Source: Verrucomicrobiota bacterium
Lineage (GTDB): Bacteria; Verrucomicrobiota; Verrucomicrobiia; Chthoniobacterales; UBA10450
DNA: 64,000 nucleotides
Direction of reading: 5' to 3'
Assembly (NCBI GenBank): GCA_019244415.1
Contig: JAFASN010000112.1
Coordinates: forward strand, 2,265 to 66,264
Within the stretch, counting starts at the first letter, position 1. Each line of letters opens with the position of its first letter. Below, piece by piece: positions 6,561 through 25,692 of this stretch. A model generated the notes under the pieces. The model did not search any database and had not been told where the DNA came from. It saw nothing but the letters and a program-made list of their open reading frames with translations. The position numbers were made by a program, and so were the translations under genes.

Positions 6561-7019
6561 CTACTCCGCGGGCGAAGGCGACGGCGAAGTACTCGGGGAG
6601 GCGGACGGCGCCGGCGGCGGAATCATGACAGTCTGGCCAGCTTGTAATTTCCGGCCGTCCTCGATGTGGTTAAACTTTTGCAGTTCTTCCACGCCGACCT
6701 TGTACTGCTTCGCGATGGAAGTGAGTGTTTCGCCGCGAGCGACGACGTGAGTGTTCCCGCCGGGGTGCGCAGGTTCAGCGCTCGCCACCGGCATCGCGCT
6801 CGGCGCAGGCGTCGCTTCGCCGACCATGACGCCTGGTTTTGTCATTTGTTGCTCGATTTTCAGGAGCTGTTGCGAAAGCGCGTCAAGCTTGCCGTTAATC
6901 TCATCGATCTTCGTCGTGAGCGCGTCCATCTGCGATGGCGCGGGCGAATTCTCCGGCGCCTGGGCAAACGTCGTTGCGGCGCAAAGAATCGCCGCGAGCA
7001 GGGCCGGAAGGAATTTCAT
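6561..7019 (-). CDS. secreted LysM peptidoglycan-binding protein
   Basis: Signal peptide MKFLPALLAAILCAATTFAQA, coiled segment, and C-terminal LysM HVVARGETLTSIAKQYKVGVEELQKFNHIEDGRKLQAGQTVMIP. Start moved to the Met before the signal peptide. Confidence 0.8.
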   Translation of the reverse strand: MKFLPALLAAILCAATTFAQAPENSPAPSQMDALTTKIDEINGKLDALSQQLLKIEQQMTKPGVMVGEATPAPSAMPVASAEPAHPGGNTHVVARGETLTSIAKQYKVGVEELQKFNHIEDGRKLQAGQTVMIPPPAPSASPSTSPSPSPAE

Positions 7020-7116
7020 CGCGGCAATCTTGGCACCGCCCGCACGGGCTGGCAAGACATCGCGCAGAGCGCTCGCTCCTTGCGCGAAGCGACATTCGCG
7101 TTACACTTTTTTGCTG

Positions 7117-7293
7117 ATGCCGGAGCGCATTCAAAAGCCGGTGGAACCGGCGCCGTGGGGGCCGAAACAGGGAGACGGCGATGGGCCGCGCTCGCCTGAT
7201 ATTTCGCGGCCTGACACGAAGGACTTGCTGGAAAAGATGCGCAAAGTCGATCCGAACCAATCGAAACGTTACCGGCAGCGAACTGGGCAATAA
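7117..7293 (+). CDS. UBact / Pup-like prokaryotic ubiquitin-like modifier (58 aa, C-terminal Gln)
   Basis: MPERIQKPVEPAPWGPKQGDGDGPRSPDISRPDTKDLLEKMRKVDPNQSKRYRQRTGQ. Low-complexity N-half, then a conserved DLL.KMRKVDPNQ.KRYRQRTG[QE] end as I recall for UBact. Its stop overlaps the proteasome beta start (TAATG). Confidence 0.75.
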   Translation: MPERIQKPVEPAPWGPKQGDGDGPRSPDISRPDTKDLLEKMRKVDPNQSKRYRQRTGQ

Positions 7294-8111
7294 TGGAGCC
7301 TGCCGGTGTGCAGCCGCTCGAATCGGGCGTGAGCGGCGCAACTGATTTCCCTTCGCTGCTCCGGCGCAACGGTCTGCTCCGAGCGCCCATTGAAACAAAC
7401 GTCACGAAAGTACGGGACGCCGCGATATTGCCGACGCAGGCGACAACAATTCTCGCCTTCAAATTCGCCGACGGCGTACTTGTTGCCGGAGATCGTCGCG
7501 CCACCGCCGGCAACACCGTGGTTTACGATCGCGCGGACAAGGTGCTCGAGATCGACGAGCATTCGATCATGGCCATTGCTGGTGTGCCGGCGACTGCGTG
7601 GGAGATGGCGCGCGTACTCGAGCATTCGTTTCAATTTTTTCGCCGCACGCAGCTCCAGGAAATGAGTGTGGACGGCAAAGTACGAGCCCTTTCGAAACTA
7701 TTGCGGGACAATCTCGGTTTCGTCATGCAGGGAGTCGGTGTCGTCGTGCCGATCTTCGCCACGTTCGACGCCAAAGCATCCCCCTCAGCGCGGCTTTATT
7801 TCTACGACGCCATGGGCGCGCAATTCGAGGCGGCTGATTTCGCCGCCACTGGCTCCGGCTCGCCGGCCGTGCGCGGAATTCTTTACTACGAAAATACCTG
7901 GGGCAAAAAGCCGCTCCACAAAATCGGCGAAGACGAGGCGGTCGTAGTGGCATTGCGCGCGCTCGACACCGCCTCCGAAGCTGACACCGCGACGGGCGGA
8001 ATCGACCGGCACGCGCGCATTTTTCCGATGATGAAGACGGTTTCCGCTGACGGGATCAAGACGCTGCCAGAAGAACGGATCGCGGAACTTTTCCACAAGC
8101 GCGTCGCATGA
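7293..8111 (+). CDS. prcB: 20S proteasome beta subunit (Ntn hydrolase with propeptide)
   Basis: Propeptide followed by TTILAFKFADGVLVAGDRRATAGN (Thr1 nucleophile context, compare actinobacterial PrcB TTIVAL..GDRR). ATGA overlap with the next gene. Confidence 0.85.
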   Translation: MEPAGVQPLESGVSGATDFPSLLRRNGLLRAPIETNVTKVRDAAILPTQATTILAFKFADGVLVAGDRRATAGNTVVYDRADKVLEIDEHSIMAIAGVPATAWEMARVLEHSFQFFRRTQLQEMSVDGKVRALSKLLRDNLGFVMQGVGVVVPIFATFDAKASPSARLYFYDAMGAQFEAADFAATGSGSPAVRGILYYENTWGKKPLHKIGEDEAVVVALRALDTASEADTATGGIDRHARIFPMMKTVSADGIKTLPEERIAELFHKRVA

Positions 8112-17834: not shown

Positions 17835-18392
17835 ATGGCTGCCGCGAACGATCTCCGCAAGGGAATGGCGATTAAGTACAATGGCAACACCGCCATTGTC
17901 CTCGAAGTGCATCATCGCACGCCCGGTAATCTCCGCGCCTTCGTGCAGGCAATCATTCGTTACCTGAACACCGGCAAAAGCGCGGACGTGCGCTTCGGCT
18001 CGACCGACAAAGTCGAGCTGGTGGACATTAACCGCAGCACGCTTGAGTTCAGCTACAAGGACCCGAACGGTTACCACTTCATGGATCCGCAGACCTACGA
18101 AACCGTCACGCTCCAGGACGGCTTACTCGGGGACGCGAAGGATTTTCTGGTGGAAAATTTGCCTGTCACCGTACTCTACGCCGAGGGCAAACCGGTGCAG
18201 GTGGAATTGCCCTCATCCGTGAGCTTGAAAGTCATCGAGTCAGCGGAAGGCGTTCGCGGTGACACTGCCAGCAACGTCACCAAACCGGCCAGGCTCGAGA
18301 CTGGCAAAACGATCAACGTGCCGCTGTTTATTAAAGAAGGCGAAACGATCAAGATCGATACTCGTACCGGAGCCTACATGGGCCGGGCGTAA
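17835..18392 (+). CDS. efp: elongation factor P
   Basis: 185 aa with KGMAIKYNGNTAIVLEV, YHFMDPQTYETV, GVRGDTASNVTKPARLETG and PLFIKEGETIKIDTRTGAYMGRA. Confidence 0.9.
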   Translation: MAAANDLRKGMAIKYNGNTAIVLEVHHRTPGNLRAFVQAIIRYLNTGKSADVRFGSTDKVELVDINRSTLEFSYKDPNGYHFMDPQTYETVTLQDGLLGDAKDFLVENLPVTVLYAEGKPVQVELPSSVSLKVIESAEGVRGDTASNVTKPARLETGKTINVPLFIKEGETIKIDTRTGAYMGRA

Positions 18393-18436: not shown

Positions 18437-18703
18437 CTAGCGCCGCGTGATGGCCAGGCGCAGCTCGTGCACGTAAGCGGGGTTTACCTCGAAACAGGTG
18501 CCCGGCATTTCTGCCATATCGATCTGCTCTGTGTAGGGAATGCTTTCGACAAAGCCCGCAGCGATCAGGCCATTGAGCGTGTCGCTTACGTCTTCGAGCT
18601 CCATTTTGGTAGCGTCGAGGATTTCGGCGCCGAGCATCGATTCGGCGAAACCGAGCGCGCGAACGACGGCGGCCTCGCGGCCTGATAAACGGACATTCCG
18701 CAT
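18437..18703 (-). CDS. hypothetical protein (88 aa)
   Basis: ORF with protein-like composition, convergent with efp. No family recognised. Confidence 0.45.
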   Translation of the reverse strand: MRNVRLSGREAAVVRALGFAESMLGAEILDATKMELEDVSDTLNGLIAAGFVESIPYTEQIDMAEMPGTCFEVNPAYVHELRLAITRR

Positions 18704-18879
18704 GATGAGAACAGAATTAAGCAGGGCGCGTGCCGAATTCTATAATTACCATAATCCGCCTTCGGGAACGCCGGCGATCAAAAATGCCGTCGTTAGCTGC
18801 GGGGCGCGGCAAAACCGTCGCTCATCCCCAGATCGGGCCCCCCTTGAATCAACCGAGGCCGCTGGTAAACTCTCGCGCT

Positions 18880-19215
18880 GTGACGAGCAAGGCGCTGACA
18901 CGGGGCTTGTGGGTGGCCGTACTCGTGGCTCTGCTCGGACTCACGTCGCCTCGGATCGGTTTCGCACACTCCACCCCGGCGAGGAAGCATCAGTGCTGTG
19001 CCCGGATGCAAATGCCGGTGCACAATAACCATTGCGGAGAACACCCCGCGAAGGCCCCGCAATGTTGTGGTGGCTGCGCCGTAGGGCTCTCGCTCTATAG
19101 TACGGCTCCTGCCCGCTTTATCTTTCCCCACACCGCCGGCGAAAATTTCGCGGCTGACGTTTTCAGCGAAGTTTCTCGCGTGGAACGCCCGGCGATTCCT
19201 CCGCCACGCGCCTGA
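18880..19215 (+). CDS. Cys/His-rich putative periplasmic metal-binding protein (111 aa from GTG)
   Basis: GTG 18880 gives TSKALTRGLWVAVLVALLGLTSPRIGFAHS (signal/TM), then HQCCARMQMPVHNNHCGEHPAKAPQCCGGCAVG. The upstream part of the 18730 ORF looks non-coding. Confidence 0.5.
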   Translation: MTSKALTRGLWVAVLVALLGLTSPRIGFAHSTPARKHQCCARMQMPVHNNHCGEHPAKAPQCCGGCAVGLSLYSTAPARFIFPHTAGENFAADVFSEVSRVERPAIPPPRA

Positions 19216-19278
19216 GCTGTCATCAGGCGGCTCGCCCGGTTTGCCGGCGAGATATTTTTGTACTTAACAGGAGGACCT

Positions 19279-19407
19279 ATGAAATACCTTTTCATCATCA
19301 TTGCTGCTTTGGCTGTGGTCGGGACGGCGACTGGGACTTCGCGCACGGCGGAGTGTTGCGCCGCGAAAGCCTGCTGCTCGAACGGAAGCCACTGCTGCGC
19401 TAAATAG
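19279..19407 (+). CDS. small secreted peptide with three vicinal Cys pairs (42 aa, not in the ORF track)
   Basis: AGGAGG 6 nt upstream of the ATG. MKYLFIIIAALAVVGTATG/TSRTAECCAAKACCSNGSHCCAK is a Sec-type signal peptide plus a 23-aa CC-x4-CC-x6-CC tail. A GC hairpin follows. Confidence 0.55.
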   Translation: MKYLFIIIAALAVVGTATGTSRTAECCAAKACCSNGSHCCAK

Positions 19408-19426
19408 TCGCGGTCTGAGTGAACGG

Positions 19427-19454
19427 CCCCGCCCGTTCTTCGGGCGGGCGGGGC
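19427..19454 (+). terminator. GC-rich hairpin after the small Cys-rich ORF (weak U tail)
   Basis: ccccgcccg-ttcttc-gggcggg(c)gggg followed by ctttcat. The stem is clear and the T tract is poor. Confidence 0.3.
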
Positions 19455-19584
19455 TTTCATGCGCAGCGAAGCAAACGCGCGTGGAGAGCGATGCGGGAGG
19501 GCGAGCGGGTGCTCGTTGCGCAGCTCGCCATCAGCCGTTCAGCCCGGCGCGGGAAAAACAACTCACCAAAGTTTCCTCATAAAC

Positions 19585-21021
19585 TTGAACCGAGCTTACT
19601 TCGTCATCATGGCCTCGCTGCTAGCGATCTGCAGCGTCGCCGCGCAATCAACATCGCCAACGCCGTCGTCGGTGCATTCAGCACATCAGCAGTACACCTG
19701 CGTCATGCACCGAGAGGTCGTAAGCGATCGGCCCGGTAAATGTCCGAAGTGCGGCATGGAATTGGTGCTCAAGACCGAGGCGGCGTCCATCCACGTTCCT
19801 GCTGAGCGGAAACGCGGGCACGAGCACGAGCACGAGATGATGATGAATTCCTCCGTGAACCTTGCCGATCCCATGGCGCGCGAGGGTTCCGGCACGAGCT
19901 GGCTGCCCGATTCTTCACCGATGTACGGCCGCATGTTCATGCTTGGCGACGATACCCTCATGCTGCACGGGGCAGCCTTCCCGCGTTACACCAATGTGAG
20001 TACACGTCGCGGTGACGACCGCATCGACGCGCCGAACTGGCTGATGGCGATGTACTCGCATCCGCTCAATGACAACGCGCAACTCGGCGCGCGCATTATG
20101 CTCAGCCTCGACCCACTCACGGAAGGAGGACGCGGTTATCCGCTGCTCTATCAATCAGGTGAATCGTGGCAGGGCGAGCCGCTGCACGACCGCCAACATC
20201 CGCACGATCTGTTCAGCGAGTTATCCGTTTCCTACTCGCAAAAAATCGCGAGCGATCTTTCCGCGCTGTTGTACTTCGGTTATCCGGGCGAGCCCGCGCT
20301 CGGGCCGCCTACGTTTATGCATCGGCCTTCGGCCATGGACGATCCCGATGCACCGCTCGGCCACCATTGGCAGGATTCCACCCACGTCACGTTCGGTGTG
20401 GCGACGGCCGCCTTGCAATGGCGCACGCTTAAACTCGAGGGCAGCATTTTTACCGGGCGCGAGCCGGATGAAAACCGCTACGATTTCGATCGTCCACGTT
20501 TCGATTCCTACAGCGGTCGAATCTCCTGGAACCCGACGCCTGATCTGGCGCTGCAATTTTCCCACGGCTATTTACGCAGCCCTGAAGCGACCGAGCCGGA
20601 TGCAAATGTGCACCGCACCACCGCGTCCGTTTTGTACAATAAATCGCTCGGCGCTGACGCAAATTGGGCAAGCACGTTTGTGTGGGGGCAGAACAACACC
20701 ACCCACGAAGGCGCGACGGAGTCGTTTCTGCTGGAATCAAATCTTCAGCGCGGGCGCGACACGGTTTACGCGCGGGTCGAGCGCGTGGAAAAATCCGCGC
20801 ACGAGCTCGTTTTGCCGGAAGAATTTCACGACGAAATTTTTCCTCTCTACTCGGCGTCGTTCGGTTACGTGCGCGACCTGACTCACGCCAAAGGCATCGA
20901 CGTCGGGCTCGGTGGGCAATTCACCATCAGCCATCGCCCGAGTGAGCTGAACGCAGTTTATGGGAATGAGCTCGGCTACGGCTTCCAAATTTTTCTGCGC
21001 GTGCGTCCATCGCGGCACTAA
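19585..21021 (+). CDS. heavy-metal-binding zinc-ribbon domain fused to a putative outer-membrane beta-barrel protein
   Basis: TTG 19585 or ATG 19609 gives the signal peptide ..FVIMASLLAICSVAAQS. YTCVMHREVVSDRPGKCPKCGMELV is the YxCPMH..CPxCGM motif seen at N-termini of Cu/Ag efflux proteins. About 400 aa of alternating beta-strand-like sequence rich in His/Asp follows. Confidence 0.6.
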   Translation: MNRAYFVIMASLLAICSVAAQSTSPTPSSVHSAHQQYTCVMHREVVSDRPGKCPKCGMELVLKTEAASIHVPAERKRGHEHEHEMMMNSSVNLADPMAREGSGTSWLPDSSPMYGRMFMLGDDTLMLHGAAFPRYTNVSTRRGDDRIDAPNWLMAMYSHPLNDNAQLGARIMLSLDPLTEGGRGYPLLYQSGESWQGEPLHDRQHPHDLFSELSVSYSQKIASDLSALLYFGYPGEPALGPPTFMHRPSAMDDPDAPLGHHWQDSTHVTFGVATAALQWRTLKLEGSIFTGREPDENRYDFDRPRFDSYSGRISWNPTPDLALQFSHGYLRSPEATEPDANVHRTTASVLYNKSLGADANWASTFVWGQNNTTHEGATESFLLESNLQRGRDTVYARVERVEKSAHELVLPEEFHDEIFPLYSASFGYVRDLTHAKGIDVGLGGQFTISHRPSELNAVYGNELGYGFQIFLRVRPSRH

Positions 21022-21077: not shown

Positions 21078-21293
21078 TTAGAAATTGAATCCTGGCGAAG
21101 TTCGCACCGGCTGCGACTCGGGCGCGTCGGGGTTTGATTCGCCGGGCACAGCGCTGGTGCCGGTGGCACTATTGCTCGTACTCTCGTCCAGCGTGCTACA
21201 GGAAGCGAAGGTGAAGGCGACGAAGAACGCGATAATCAACCCGCAGCACGTTTTCACCCGCGAAACAATGCAAAGGCACCGATGAATTTCCAT
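21078..21293 (-). CDS. small putative lipoprotein
   Basis: MEIHRCLCIVSRVKTCCGLIIAFFVAFTFASC has a lipobox-like FASC, followed by a Ser/Thr/Pro-rich tail. Confidence 0.4.
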   Translation of the reverse strand: MEIHRCLCIVSRVKTCCGLIIAFFVAFTFASCSTLDESTSNSATGTSAVPGESNPDAPESQPVRTSPGFNF

Positions 21294-21344
21294 CGCTCCT
21301 TGTGAACCATGCATCGCGAGACGGAAAGAACTCCCATGCTCAGC

Positions 21345-23065: not shown

Positions 23066-23269
23066 CTACATGGGCGCGAGTGGCGGCCGTTCCGGCGGCT
23101 CGGCGCGGAGCGTCTTCTGCGTGTGCGTACTCGTATCGATCATCGTCTCGGTGCTTGGGCTCTCATTCGCACAACCGCATAACACGCCGGCCAGCACGAG
23201 AGACAGCATGGCTGCCGCAAGTTTCCTCCTCAGTACAGCGGAATCGCTCGCCTGTTCACGAGTTTTCAT
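23066..23269 (-). CDS. small putative lipoprotein
   Basis: [30 protein letters not shown] (lipobox-like) from the internal Met of the 23066..23356 ORF. Confidence 0.4.
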
Positions 23270-23385
23270 CGGATCACCTGCACCTTCGCCGGGCGATTTG
23301 CGCCCTGCAAGTTTCGGCATCCGTGGTATTGCCCTTACGCGCAAAAGTACAGGCAACGCCAGGGTGTGTTACGTTCAACCCGGGG

Positions 23386-25692
23386 ATGAAATCCGCGCAT
23401 TCGTGTGACTCAGAGAAGGACGCGACCAGCGGCGCACCCTGTCATGCGCACACCGCGGTTCCGAACGAGCGGCCCGCGAAAAAATATTTGTGCCCGATGT
23501 GCGCCGGCGTCGAGAGCGACAGCCCAGGCACTTGTCCCAAATGCGGAATGGCGTTGGAATTAAACCCAACTTTCCGGAGCGCGAACAACGTCGTTTACAC
23601 CTGCCCGATGCATCCGCAAATCGAGCAGGACCGTCCCGGTACTTGCCCGATATGCGGGATGGCGCTCGAGCCGAAAAATGCGGGTGACTTGGAGGAAAAT
23701 CCTGAGCTGCGCGACATGACGCGACGGTTCTGGATCGGCGCCGTACTCAGCCTGCCGGTGTTCATCGTTGCCATGTCGCACATGCTCCCTTCGGCGCCGC
23801 CTTGGGTGCAGGGTGATTTCTCTCGCTGGGCGCAGTTTGTCCTGAGTACGCCGGTCGTGTTCTGGTGCGGCTGGCCGTTCTTCCAGCGCGCGTGGCAGTC
23901 GGTCGTTAACCGCTCGCCCAATATGTTTACGCTGATCGCGATCGGCGTGGGCGCCGCCTACGGCTACAGCGCCGTGGTCATGCTGCTGCCATGGATTTTT
24001 CCACCGTCGTTCGCGGCACACGGGACCATTGGCATTTACTTCGAAGCGGCCGCGATCATCACCGTGTTGGTGTTGCTTGGTCAGGTACTCGAATTGCGCG
24101 CGCGCAGCCGCACCGGCAGCGCCATTCGCGCCCTGCTCGATCTCGCACCGGCCACTGCTCGCCTGGTGCGCGATGGCGAAGAGCACGATGTGCCGCTGAA
24201 TGAAGTACGAGCCGGCGACCATCTGCGCGTGCGGCCGGGCGAAAAAGTGCCGGTCGATGGCCGCGTTACCGAAGGCCGCACGAGCATCGACGAATCAATG
24301 CTCACGGGCGAATCGATGCCGGTGGAAAAAGCGGCCGGCGATCGCGTAACGGGTGCGACGTTGAACCAAACCGGCAGCATCGTCATCCAAGCGGAGCGAG
24401 TGGGCAGCAAAACGGTGCTCGCGCAAATCGTCGAGATGGTTGCACAAGCGCAACGCAGCCGCGCGCCGATCCAGCGCCTGGCGGACAAAGTCGCCGGCTG
24501 GTTTGTGCCGGCGGTGATCCTGATTGCGCTCATCACATTTTGCGCGTGGGCGCTCGCCGGACCTGAACCGCGGCTCGCCTACGCCATCGTCAACGCCGTG
24601 GCCGTGCTGATCATTGCCTGTCCTTGCGCGCTTGGGCTCGCCACACCCATGTCGGTGATGGTGGGAGTTGGCCGCGGCGCGCAAGCCGGCGTGCTCATCA
24701 AAAATGCCGGAGCCATCGAGTTGATGGAGAAGGTGAGTACGCTGGTGGTAGACAAAACGGGCACGCTCACGCAAGGCAAGCTCGCCGTAACCGGAATGAT
24801 CACCAAGGGCGCCGTGACCGAAGAGGAACTGCTCCGGTCGGCCGCCGCCGTCGAGAAAAACAGCGAACATCCGCTCGCCCGTGCGTTGCTGGAAGCGGCG
24901 ACGCAACGCGGCATCAGCATTCCGGCAGCGGCGAATTTTGAATCGATCACTGGCGGTGGCGTCGTGGGCGAGGTTGCTGGTCAGCGCGTGGTGGTGGGAA
25001 AGGAGAAGTTCCTTCGTGAGTACGAGATTAAGGACTTGGACTCGCTCGAGGAACGCGCCGCCGCGTTTCGAGCTCAGGGCAACGGCGTCATCTTCGTCGC
25101 CATCGGCGGCCGCGCAGCCGGCATCATCGCGGTCGCGGATGAAGTGAAGGAAACCGCTGCCGGCGTCATCCAGGAACTGCATCGGCTCGGGATCAAGATC
25201 ATCATGCTGACCGGCGACAACGAGCGCACCGCGCGTTCCGTCGCGCAGAAGCTCGGGATCGACGACGTCGAAGCTGGGGTGGAACCGGAGCAAAAGTACG
25301 AGCGCGTCCGCGGATTACGTGGGGAAAACAACGTCGTCGCCATGGCGGGCGACGGGATCAACGACGCGCCGGCGCTTGCCGCGGCGGACGTCGGCATTGC
25401 CATGGGCACCGGCACAGACGTGGCGATGGAGAGCGCTGGCATCACGCTGCTGAGCGGTGATCTGCGCGGCATCGAGAAGGCAGTGCGTTTGAGTCGCGCG
25501 ATGATGCGCAACATCCGGCAGAACCTGTTTTTCGCGTTTATCTACAACTCGTTAGGCGTGCCCATCGCGGCGGGCGTTCTCTACCCATTCTTCGGCATCC
25601 TGCTCAGTCCGGTACTCGCGGGCGCGGCGATGAGCTTTAGTTCCGTGTCAGTAATCGCGAACGCGCTGCGATTGCGTTCGGCGCGCCTGTGA
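23386..25692 (+). CDS. copA: copper-translocating P1B-type ATPase with two N-terminal metal-binding zinc-ribbon motifs
   Basis: [25 protein letters not shown] and [26 protein letters not shown], then TGESMPV, CPC ([13 protein letters not shown]), [17 protein letters not shown]. The start is set at ATG 23386, because the longer ORF overlaps the opposite-strand lipoprotein gene. Confidence 0.92.

Follow-up and report, generated by a model that had tools for sequence, protein, structure and literature searches.

A 42-codon open reading frame (ORF) is located on the forward strand at positions 19279–19407 of the window, by which we mean the whole 64,000-nucleotide stretch of verrucomicrobial DNA that was analyzed. 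The ORF starts with ATG at 19279, ends with TAG at 19405–19407, and is translated into MKYLFIIIAALAVVGTATGTSRTAECCAAKACCSNGSHCCAK; both its position and its product are exactly those given in an earlier, sequence-only reading of this DNA. The Shine-Dalgarno (SD) sequence of the gene, AGGAGG at 19269–19274 on the forward strand, is separated from the ATG by 4 nt (ACCT). The earlier reading had identified this SD correctly and was off only in a minor point, the spacer, which it gave as 6 nt. Residues 1–19 (MKYLFIIIAALAVVGTATG) were assigned by inspection as a Sec-type signal peptide with A-x-G/A at positions −3/−1, and signal cleavage would leave a mature 23-mer, TSRTAECCAAKACCSNGSHCCAK. Six of its 23 residues (~26%) are Cys, arranged in three vicinal pairs, and none is aromatic. 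The ORF is absent from the source annotation. An antisense ORF of 121 codons overlaps the gene and is the usual artefact of high-GC DNA.

Homologs of the peptide were searched for in proteins, genomes, and metagenomes. A word-index protein search returned no match, and neither Pfam nor NCBIfam searches with the peptide produced a hit. When 1.84 billion representative proteins were searched with phmmer, 14 matches were obtained, all sharing the architecture of the peptide. Many of these relatives were mis-called with long N-terminal extensions, and the family members in public databases carry no label other than "hypothetical protein." At 80 loci gathered through the protein encoded downstream, which contains an HMBD (from Chthoniobacterales, Udaeobacter, and other Verrucomicrobiota MAGs), an HMM of the peptide family detected the peptide gene in 13–14. 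Scanning metagenomes with the peptide alignment contributed a further 80 loci, from soil. In total, Chthoniobacterales/Udaeobacter genomes and soil metagenomes yielded 91 ORFs of the family, with 71 distinct nucleotide sequences encoding 59 distinct peptides.

Every copy has kept a signal peptide of the Sec type together with the pattern CC-x2-4-CC-x3-6-CC-A-[KRH]. M1, Y3, and the six Cys residues were invariant, and K2 and the A-x-A cleavage motif were nearly so. An acidic residue precedes the first Cys pair, the C-terminal end is CCA[KRH], and a few homologs carry a Phe in the mature part. Among the 71 distinct nucleotide sequences, variability was highest at the third codon position (0.42 vs 0.25 and 0.19). 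The median dN/dS of the family was 0.27, with values below 1 for 2378/2378 pairs; the value was 0.19 for the signal peptide and 0.34 for the mature part. Of 86 loci, 78 had AGGAGG or GGAGG 4–8 nt before the ATG, and 84 had some SD-like motif. Because conservation, dN/dS, SD sequences, and synteny agree across the 91 loci, the 42-codon ORF is almost certainly a real, conserved protein-coding gene. The earlier proposal of a genuine secreted peptide with a Sec signal and three vicinal Cys pairs has therefore held up. A chance ORF or annotation artefact in GC-rich DNA might be suspected from the shortness of the ORF, its omission from the annotation, and the overlapping antisense ORF; the same four lines of evidence over 91 loci contradict this explanation, which is effectively refuted.

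The ORF upstream of the peptide gene (18880–19215, forward strand) is a putative metal-sensing regulatory ORF that, by alignment and weak DUF2946 matches, is CutF/CruR-like (DUF2946-like). CutF of Rhodobacter capsulatus and CruR of Bordetella pertussis are encoded by small Sec-targeted DUF2946 ORFs, in which Cys residues sense copper and a proline-rich C-terminal arrest motif controls the next gene in cis (PMC9973294, PMC9426467, bioRxiv 10.1101/2025.02.05.636593). In the window, the longest ORF extends from 18730. Alignment with homologs points to GTG 18880 as the likely start, which gives a protein of 111 residues, with ATG 18784 (143 residues) as an alternative; the homologs are 109–123 residues long. 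The N-terminus, again assigned by inspection, combines a basic n-region with a hydrophobic stretch, LWVAVLVALLGL, that would form a signal or transmembrane segment. This is followed by a Cys motif, CC-x11-C-x9-CC-x2-C, together with His residues; the homologs have CC-x10-12-C-x9-14-CC-x2-C. In an alignment of 13 homologs, C39, C40, C52, C63, and C66 were invariant and C62 was nearly invariant. At the C-terminus, the homologs carry an arrest-type motif, RPPVPPPR, with a stop codon after 0–4 further residues, and the window has the variant RPAIPPPRA-stop. We identified weak single matches to cystine-knot toxin and conotoxin Pfam models in two members of the sensor family (alignment A2).

The classification of the sensor ORF was examined against domain models and published rules. 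Weak full-length matches to Pfam DUF2946 were found in 7 of the 13 homologs, the best having an E value of 0.0039, below the Pfam cut-off. The window sensor itself scored 13.3 bits against PF11162 (DUF2946), for which the gathering cut-off is 23.7. None of the sensor homologs (at least 201 clusters, profile search) had a precomputed Pfam domain, all being annotated as "hypothetical," and an NCBIfam search with the sensor family gave no match. By the published rules (PMC9973294), a CutF-like protein is shorter than 150 residues, carries a signal peptide, has PP among its final 15 residues, and is encoded less than 1 kb from a neighboring gene on the same strand; the window sensor has every one of these features. 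These results suggest that the sensor is CutF-like by architecture and not a proven DUF2946 member. Because the DUF2946 score lies below the cut-off and no homolog carries a Pfam annotation, its homology to CutF/CruR is remote, or the resemblance convergent.

The sensor ORF was the constant partner of the peptide gene, a position held by neither the downstream HMBD protein nor the CopA-type ATPase that is also encoded in the window. In 86 of 91 loci, the peptide gene was preceded within 200 nt by an ORF ending in PPP-R-x0-5-stop. The intergenic distance was 63 nt in the window and mostly 55–73 nt elsewhere. At one locus (L070), the sensor and peptide genes are paired 3.3 kb away from the HMBD gene and lie ahead of a CDF transporter gene. 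These results indicate that the peptide gene is very probably coupled to a CutF-like sensor. The link to metal homeostasis that had been postulated from the neighboring genes is borne out in this form, with the peptide gene directly behind a CutF/CruR-type ORF at those 86 loci. The upstream gene had been read as one for a Cys/His-rich periplasmic protein; the ORF is indeed there (18730/18880–19215), but it most likely encodes a cis-acting regulatory sensor rather than a structural protein of the periplasm.

We examined the RNA between the two genes. The arrest-type motif codons R-P-A-I-P-P-P-R-A-stop (19186–19215, forward strand) contain a predicted anti-SD, UCCUCC, at 19197–19202. In both the MFE and the centroid folds of the window, 19197–19202 was paired with 19270–19275, so that the predicted partner of the SD is formed by the AUU CCU CCG codons of the motif RPAIPPP. 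In the family, MFE folds paired the SD (AACAGGAGG) with the R-P-P-V codons (CGU CCU CCU GUU) in 59 of 68 distinct sequences. The codons involved were strongly biased relative to other genes of the same genomes. At the first two Pro positions of the arrest motif (P1 and P2), CCT made up 48% of codons compared with a background of 6%, and GTT made up 83% of the Val codons compared with 19%. P3–P5, by contrast, followed the background preference, CCG. In a register control, 80% of cells were paired in the proposed register vs 30–52% when the partner was slid by 1–3 columns. Furthermore, in silico synonymous recoding to the preferred codons lowered SD-to-coding pairing from 59/68 to 25/68. The choice of codons in the arrest motif supports the view that they have been selected for SD pairing.

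Covariation in the long-range helix was weak, with double changes at three pairs and 15 of 500 shuffles matching the observed score, because both arms are constrained by other functions. For this reason, the case for a switch is built on codon bias and the register control. Taken as a whole, this region of the window folded only modestly better than its shuffles (z = −1.78), and its arrest motif, RPAIPPP, departs from the family form; both points count against the switch. Inside the long-range anti-SD/SD helix lies a conserved intergenic hairpin, CTCGCCCGG-TTTG-CCGGCGAG (19231–19251, forward strand). RNAalifold analysis of 24 diverse loci predicted nine pairs in this hairpin, with compensatory changes at 7/9. 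We rejected this hairpin as a general intrinsic terminator: a T-run follows it in the window only, and a purine-rich spacer is found elsewhere. An Rfam search over the window detected a tRNA-Gln only, with no riboswitch or known leader. A consensus promoter/terminator scan missed both this hairpin and the one that follows the peptide gene, one of them being bulged and the other having a short U-run.

[quoted passage not shown] When no ribosome is paused on the sensor ORF, its Pro/Val codons would pair with the SD of the peptide gene around the conserved hairpin, and initiation would be blocked. A ribosome paused at the arrest motif would cover the anti-SD and thereby free the start site of the peptide. 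This unmasking is deduced from structure prediction, and we consider it likely that the SD-sequestering switch works as drawn.

Downstream of the peptide gene, a 14-bp GC hairpin (19425–19455, forward strand) begins 17 nt after the stop codon; the sequence-only reading had noted a GC hairpin here. Its region has an MFE of −39.8 kcal/mol (z = −4.35), and 0/200 shuffles were as stable. The stem of an intrinsic terminator is present, but only UUU follows it and there is no U-tract; the window hairpin is a read-through, attenuating, or stabilizing element and not a full terminator. We compared the downstream context at 64 informative loci, those with at least 700 nt of downstream sequence. The HMBD gene was next in 40 loci, far away in 1, and absent in 23. 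A T-rich tail or U-tract followed the hairpin in 20 of the 23 loci where the peptide gene stands without the HMBD gene, compared with 0 of the 40 HMBD-linked loci. The next genes at the 23 stand-alone loci were unrelated or convergent. Sensor and peptide genes thus read as a complete, terminated two-gene unit in many genomes, and where a further gene follows, the terminator appears to have lost its U-tract. A metal-binding-domain protein encoded next to the peptide, another element of the earlier reading, is therefore found at only ~40 of the 64 informative loci, the window among them. Because stand-alone, terminated sensor-peptide units occur in 23 of the 64 loci, the peptide would be the regulated product.

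The same units argue against the possibility that the 42-codon ORF is merely a second cis-acting leader, one that yields no working product and passes regulation on to the HMBD gene, either by hairpin melting during translation or by Cys-tRNA attenuation. In favor of such a leader, the strong hairpin 17 nt past the stop codon resembles in its geometry the first ORF and its hairpin, and at some loci its 3′ arm holds a GGAGG before the HMBD start. However, 23 of the 64 loci have no downstream HMBD gene, and 20 of these 23 have a proper terminator. The signal peptide and its cleavage site are under purifying selection (dN/dS 0.19), which a leader would not need, and the 42-codon ORF contains no arrest motif. 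In addition, with only 42 codons the Cys region would still be inside the ribosome tunnel at termination, where it could not sense the periplasm co-translationally. A productless relay leader is therefore very improbable. A role of the peptide itself as a co-translational periplasmic sensor was also rejected, given the location of its Cys region in the ribosome at termination and the existence of stand-alone terminated units.

The gene downstream of the hairpin (19585–21021, forward strand), an optional third member of the unit, encodes an HMBD (PF19335) followed by a long, conserved C-terminal part, a putative His/Asp/Met-rich β-barrel of ~400 residues, and the product is a putative porin-like outer-membrane protein. 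The frame is open from 19459, and TTG 19585 or ATG 19609 is the likely start, either of which would give a signal peptide. The HMBD was identified by Pfam with an E value of 8.8e-12. An AlphaFold2 model of the protein was all β with low confidence (pLDDT 57). Foldseek with this low-confidence model returned 16-strand porins as the top matches (E values down to 1e-6, TM 0.3–0.5), generic matches that support an outer-membrane β-barrel and nothing more specific. By Pfam, the protein showed no similarity to PcoB/CopB. The protein may plausibly form a channel in the outer membrane, with its metal-binding domain in the periplasm. In 66 of the 80 genome loci, a small ORF ending in HAPP precedes the HMBD-porin gene, and at loci without the peptide it is such a HAPP-type (RAPP-like) ORF that lies ahead of it.

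A CopA-type P1B ATPase with two HMBDs is encoded at 23080–25692, 3.7 kb from the peptide gene. The earlier reading had placed CopA ~4 kb away; the gene is there, but its proximity is not conserved at other loci. We rejected CopA proximity, and likewise adjacency to efp, as meaningful, since neither was conserved. Metal-related neighbors found at various loci were the HMBD-porin, a CDF transporter, an ArsP-type permease, and a DUF3347 protein. At ~20 inspected loci, no DUF692 (MNIO), DUF2063, radical-SAM, YcaO, or lanthipeptide enzyme was conserved beside the peptide, and no RiPP maturase was present among the ~45 larger window ORFs scanned with Pfam (positions 1256–56273).

These neighborhoods bear on whether the peptide is a RiPP precursor whose Cys residues are modified by enzymes encoded elsewhere, such as an MNIO as in bufferins or a radical-SAM enzyme as in SCIFF/ranthipeptides. 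SCIFF precursors have six Cys in ~45 residues and are not known to carry a signal peptide. When compared with SCIFF/ranthipeptides, the window peptide agreed in its Cys count only, with no NCBIfam match and no radical-SAM neighbor. Bufferins require adjacent MNIO (DUF692) and DUF2063 genes, the products of which convert Cys to thiooxazoles needed for copper binding (10.1101/2024.03.18.585515). The peptide shares with bufferins a Sec signal peptide and conserved core Cys residues; their precursors are likewise copper-related, and a small size and Cys richness would suit a precursor. In contrast, DUF692 and DUF2063 neighbors were absent from the window ORFs at 1256–56273 and from the flanks of the other loci, and the DUF2282, BUF_6/12Cys, and chryseobasin models were unmatched. 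The lack of a conserved maturase at the ~20 loci and among the larger window ORFs, the absence of Pfam/NCBIfam matches of the peptide (bufferin, chryseobasin, and SCIFF models included), and the 23 loci that are terminated two-gene units all stand against this explanation, which we regard as quite improbable. The suggestion in the sequence-only reading that the peptide may be the precursor of a modified peptide is accordingly disfavored, given that no conserved maturase is nearby and no precursor model matches.

In composition, the window peptide is metallothionein-like: it is short, contains >20% Cys, and has a mature part without aromatic residues. Small copper metallothioneins such as the 26-residue CuMT of Neurospora crassa and the mycobacterial MymT are also very short and Cys-rich. 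Known metallothioneins are cytosolic and mostly have CxC or CxxC spacing. By analogy with the small copper metallothioneins, six thiolates are suited to a Cu(I)4S6 cluster. Vicinal Cys pairs, of which the ArsD metallochaperone has three, bind soft metals or metalloids in ArsD and in MerT/MerA, and these precedents would keep As(III), Hg(II), and Ag(I) as candidate metals. The presence of vicinal Cys pairs in both the sensor and the peptide suggests a shared soft-metal ligand. Binding of metal as the function of the peptide seems somewhat more probable than improbable.

In an oxidizing periplasm, unmodified Cys residues may form disulfides instead of binding metal. The peptide could be a disulfide-rich secreted peptide, a knotted mini-protein with three disulfides that serves as a redox buffer or decoy against copper-catalyzed thiol oxidation, or as a toxin or signal. 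It is Sec-exported and Cys-rich in an oxidizing compartment, the residues between its Cys vary freely (dN/dS of the mature part, 0.34), as in disulfide-framework peptides, and cystine-knot toxin and conotoxin Pfam models were matched, though weakly and by two sensor members, not by the peptide. However, the peptide gene is closely tied to a metal-sensor ORF and to genes for metal transporters, which favors a role with metals. Furthermore, vicinal Cys residues are poor mutual disulfide partners, the loops are very short, and no immunity or export genes are linked. A disulfide-rich peptide is therefore unlikely.

For a peptide that binds metal, the sensor could act in either of two directions. 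CruR carries the motif RAPP and works through Rho-dependent termination; copper relieves its arrest and a TonB-dependent importer is repressed (PMC9426467). If this logic applied here, with metal relieving the pause and turning the unit off, the peptide would be a chalkophore-like factor for copper acquisition under copper limitation, and the HMBD-porin an uptake channel. CruR is a relative of the sensor type and represses an importer when copper is present, the HAPP-ending ORF upstream of the HMBD-porin gene in 66 of 80 loci resembles the RAPP arrest motif, and the sequence by itself is compatible with either direction of regulation. On the other hand, the sensor linked to the peptide has a PPP motif like CutF rather than RAPP, and at L070 no terminator separates the pair from the CDF efflux gene that follows. 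Free thiols would also be poor extracellular chelators in oxic soil, and no TonB-dependent receptor is linked. Metal scavenging is thus fairly unlikely. Because the motif is a polyproline one, like that of CutF, and the pair at one locus continues into an efflux gene, we prefer induction by excess metal, that is, expression switched on by metal as in the CutF logic.

Taken together, the window region 18880–21021 may be a small metal-responsive operon. The Cys/His motif of the exported nascent sensor would meet periplasmic copper or another thiophilic metal, and the metal would change how long the ribosome pauses at the C-terminal RP(P/A)(V/I)PPPR, and so set the switch described above. The peptide would be exported through Sec and cut behind A-x-A/G, which would leave ~23 residues with six Cys in three vicinal pairs. 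The mature peptide would then sequester or chaperone Cu(I), or Ag, Hg, or As(III), as an extracytoplasmic thiolate cluster. In the window and at ~60% of loci, the hairpin without a U-tract would allow transcription into the HMBD-porin-like gene, the product of which may carry metal across the outer membrane; elsewhere, the hairpin would be a true terminator and the peptide would act alone. The best overall explanation, to which we give moderate credence, is an operon switched by a CutF-like sensor for a secreted thiolate peptide that resembles a small metallothionein. More speculatively, and at present only as a tentative proposal, the unmodified Sec-exported hexacysteine 23-mer may represent a new class of bacterial extracytoplasmic metallothionein or metallophore, with its synthesis induced directly by copper in the periplasm by way of an arrest peptide in which the proline codons also serve as the anti-SD.

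The regulatory principle is already known from CutF, CruR, and SecM. What appears new is that the principle is found in Verrucomicrobia, with a DUF2946-like sensor that scores below threshold, that a predicted anti-SD lies within the arrest codons and, above all, that the target belongs to an uncharacterized family of tiny secreted hexacysteine peptides. Reading extracytoplasmic metal by means of a nascent chain, as CutF/CruR-type sensors do, has been described only recently. The genes reported to be under such control encode oxidases, efflux pumps, chaperones, and TonB-dependent receptors, and small Cys-rich peptides are absent from the common downstream neighbors tabulated for CutF-like genes. 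The present locus would widen this list with a target of a new kind, a gene for a tiny thiol-rich secreted peptide that annotation usually misses or leaves unnamed, and would extend the CutF-type mechanism to Verrucomicrobia in a compact form in which the arrest codons are the anti-SD. The whole system (sensor ORF, 63-nt spacer, and 42 codons) spans ~530 nt, which makes it easy to test with reporters. If the proposed function is correct, copper (or Ag, Hg, or As) buffering of this kind could be a widespread and overlooked trait in soils by way of Chthoniobacterales/Udaeobacter, which are among the most abundant soil bacteria. The peptide would then bear on how metals are cycled by a soil lineage that is both dominant and uncultured (PMC7343977).

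[quoted passage not shown] Unlike CutF-cutO, the host here is verrucomicrobial and the sensor falls below the Pfam DUF2946 threshold. The sensor motif is CC...C...CC-x2-C instead of the CxxxC of CutF, and the anti-SD is predicted to lie inside the proline codons themselves. The target also differs, being a 42-codon Cys-rich peptide here and a multicopper oxidase for CutF, and the present system is known from sequence alone. As in CruR (Bp2923)-bfrG of B. pertussis, a DUF2946-type upstream ORF with Cys residues and a C-terminal arrest motif heads a copper-related operon. CruR, however, combines RAPP with Rho, whereas a polyproline motif is found here and the predicted structure targets the SD. 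The arrangement further recalls SecM-secA, where the ribosome stalled on an exported arrest peptide opens a stem that hides the SD of the next gene, as is predicted here; SecM monitors secretion and not metal, and the families are unrelated.

The peptide itself has no sequence similarity to metallothioneins and differs from them in having a signal peptide and CC pairs only. ArsD, MerT, and MerA are larger and cytosolic or membrane proteins, whereas the peptide would be exported, has no homology to them, and lies in a context that points to copper (HMBD, CopA). Bufferins, the nearest analog in function, are similarly ribosomal, Cys-based, and provided with a Sec signal, and are proposed to sequester periplasmic copper (10.1101/2024.03.18.585515). 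Their precursors have 80–120 residues and fold as small proteins, compared with ~23 residues for the mature peptide here. Should the peptide bind copper without modification of its Cys residues, it would be a simpler counterpart of the enzyme-modified bufferins.

We examined the sequence flanking the sensor ORF, the CutF/CruR-like arrest-peptide ORF that lies ahead of the peptide gene. Upstream of it, a perfect TATAAT hexamer was found at 18741-18746. Its partner -35 element is a weak TTAAGC at an 18-nt spacer, and the pair fell under the threshold of the consensus promoter scan. The site is a possible promoter for the sensor/peptide unit. Farther upstream, the gene for elongation factor P (17835-18392) is located ~490 nt 5′ of the sensor ORF, with a small MarR-like gene on the minus strand (18437-18703) between the two. 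Elongation factor P rescues ribosomes from polyproline stalling and is needed for CutF control (bioRxiv 10.1101/2025.02.05.636593). Its gene was not found beside the sensor ORF at the other loci compared, and the adjacency in the window is thus probably a coincidence.

Elsewhere in the window, a gene for the prokaryotic ubiquitin-like protein UBact (PF20513) is followed by a proteasome-subunit gene (6751-8111); the two make up the UBact-proteasome cluster familiar from some Verrucomicrobia and other phyla.

Variation within the peptide family was also observed. A form ending in ...ATSPVADSSGA(Q/K)CCCCGHGCAK, in which SS replaces the first Cys pair and a CCCC run is present, was detected at L012 (1260-1382) and at three further homologous loci (L122, L123, and L124). 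Since four independent contigs share this form, sequencing error was ruled out as its source. The peptide gene copy is truncated in L023 and frameshifted in L118. In the conserved peptide end, CCA[KRH], position -4 is occupied by a Cys; a CaaX box has its Cys at that position too, and the likeness is no more than a resemblance. An ICMT/PEMT-family membrane methyltransferase gene was located 3′ of the HMBD-porin gene in L004 (7459-8082), with equivalents in L007 and L010. This neighbor is confined to one subclade, its linkage is not kept across the peptide family, and the gene is missing from the window.

The ORF of the HMBD-porin gene is open from an ATG 3 nt past the hairpin that follows the peptide gene, and the resulting 42-residue extension (19459-19584) is unlike a signal peptide. 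The source annotation gives a 421-residue product without the HMBD (P0001). Homologues indicate that the predicted start lies near TTG 19585 or ATG 19609. Just 3′ of this gene, a 78-codon ORF on the minus strand (21078-21314) carries a lipoprotein-like signal (…FTFASC…); no counterpart was detectable in the other loci compared.

At the peptide-less loci (~66 of the 80 genome loci; L001, L003, L011, L013-L022, and others), a different small ORF lies directly 5′ of the HMBD-porin gene. Its product carries the motifs ..NHCA..CP(M/F)HS..CCK.LRA..LDTGPPG.. and then (A/S)HAPP, with the stop codon following after 0-4 residues. The C-terminus of this product is similar to the RAPP motif on which CruR arrests, so the porin gene seems to be preceded in every case by some arrest-peptide sensor, which can be either of two types.
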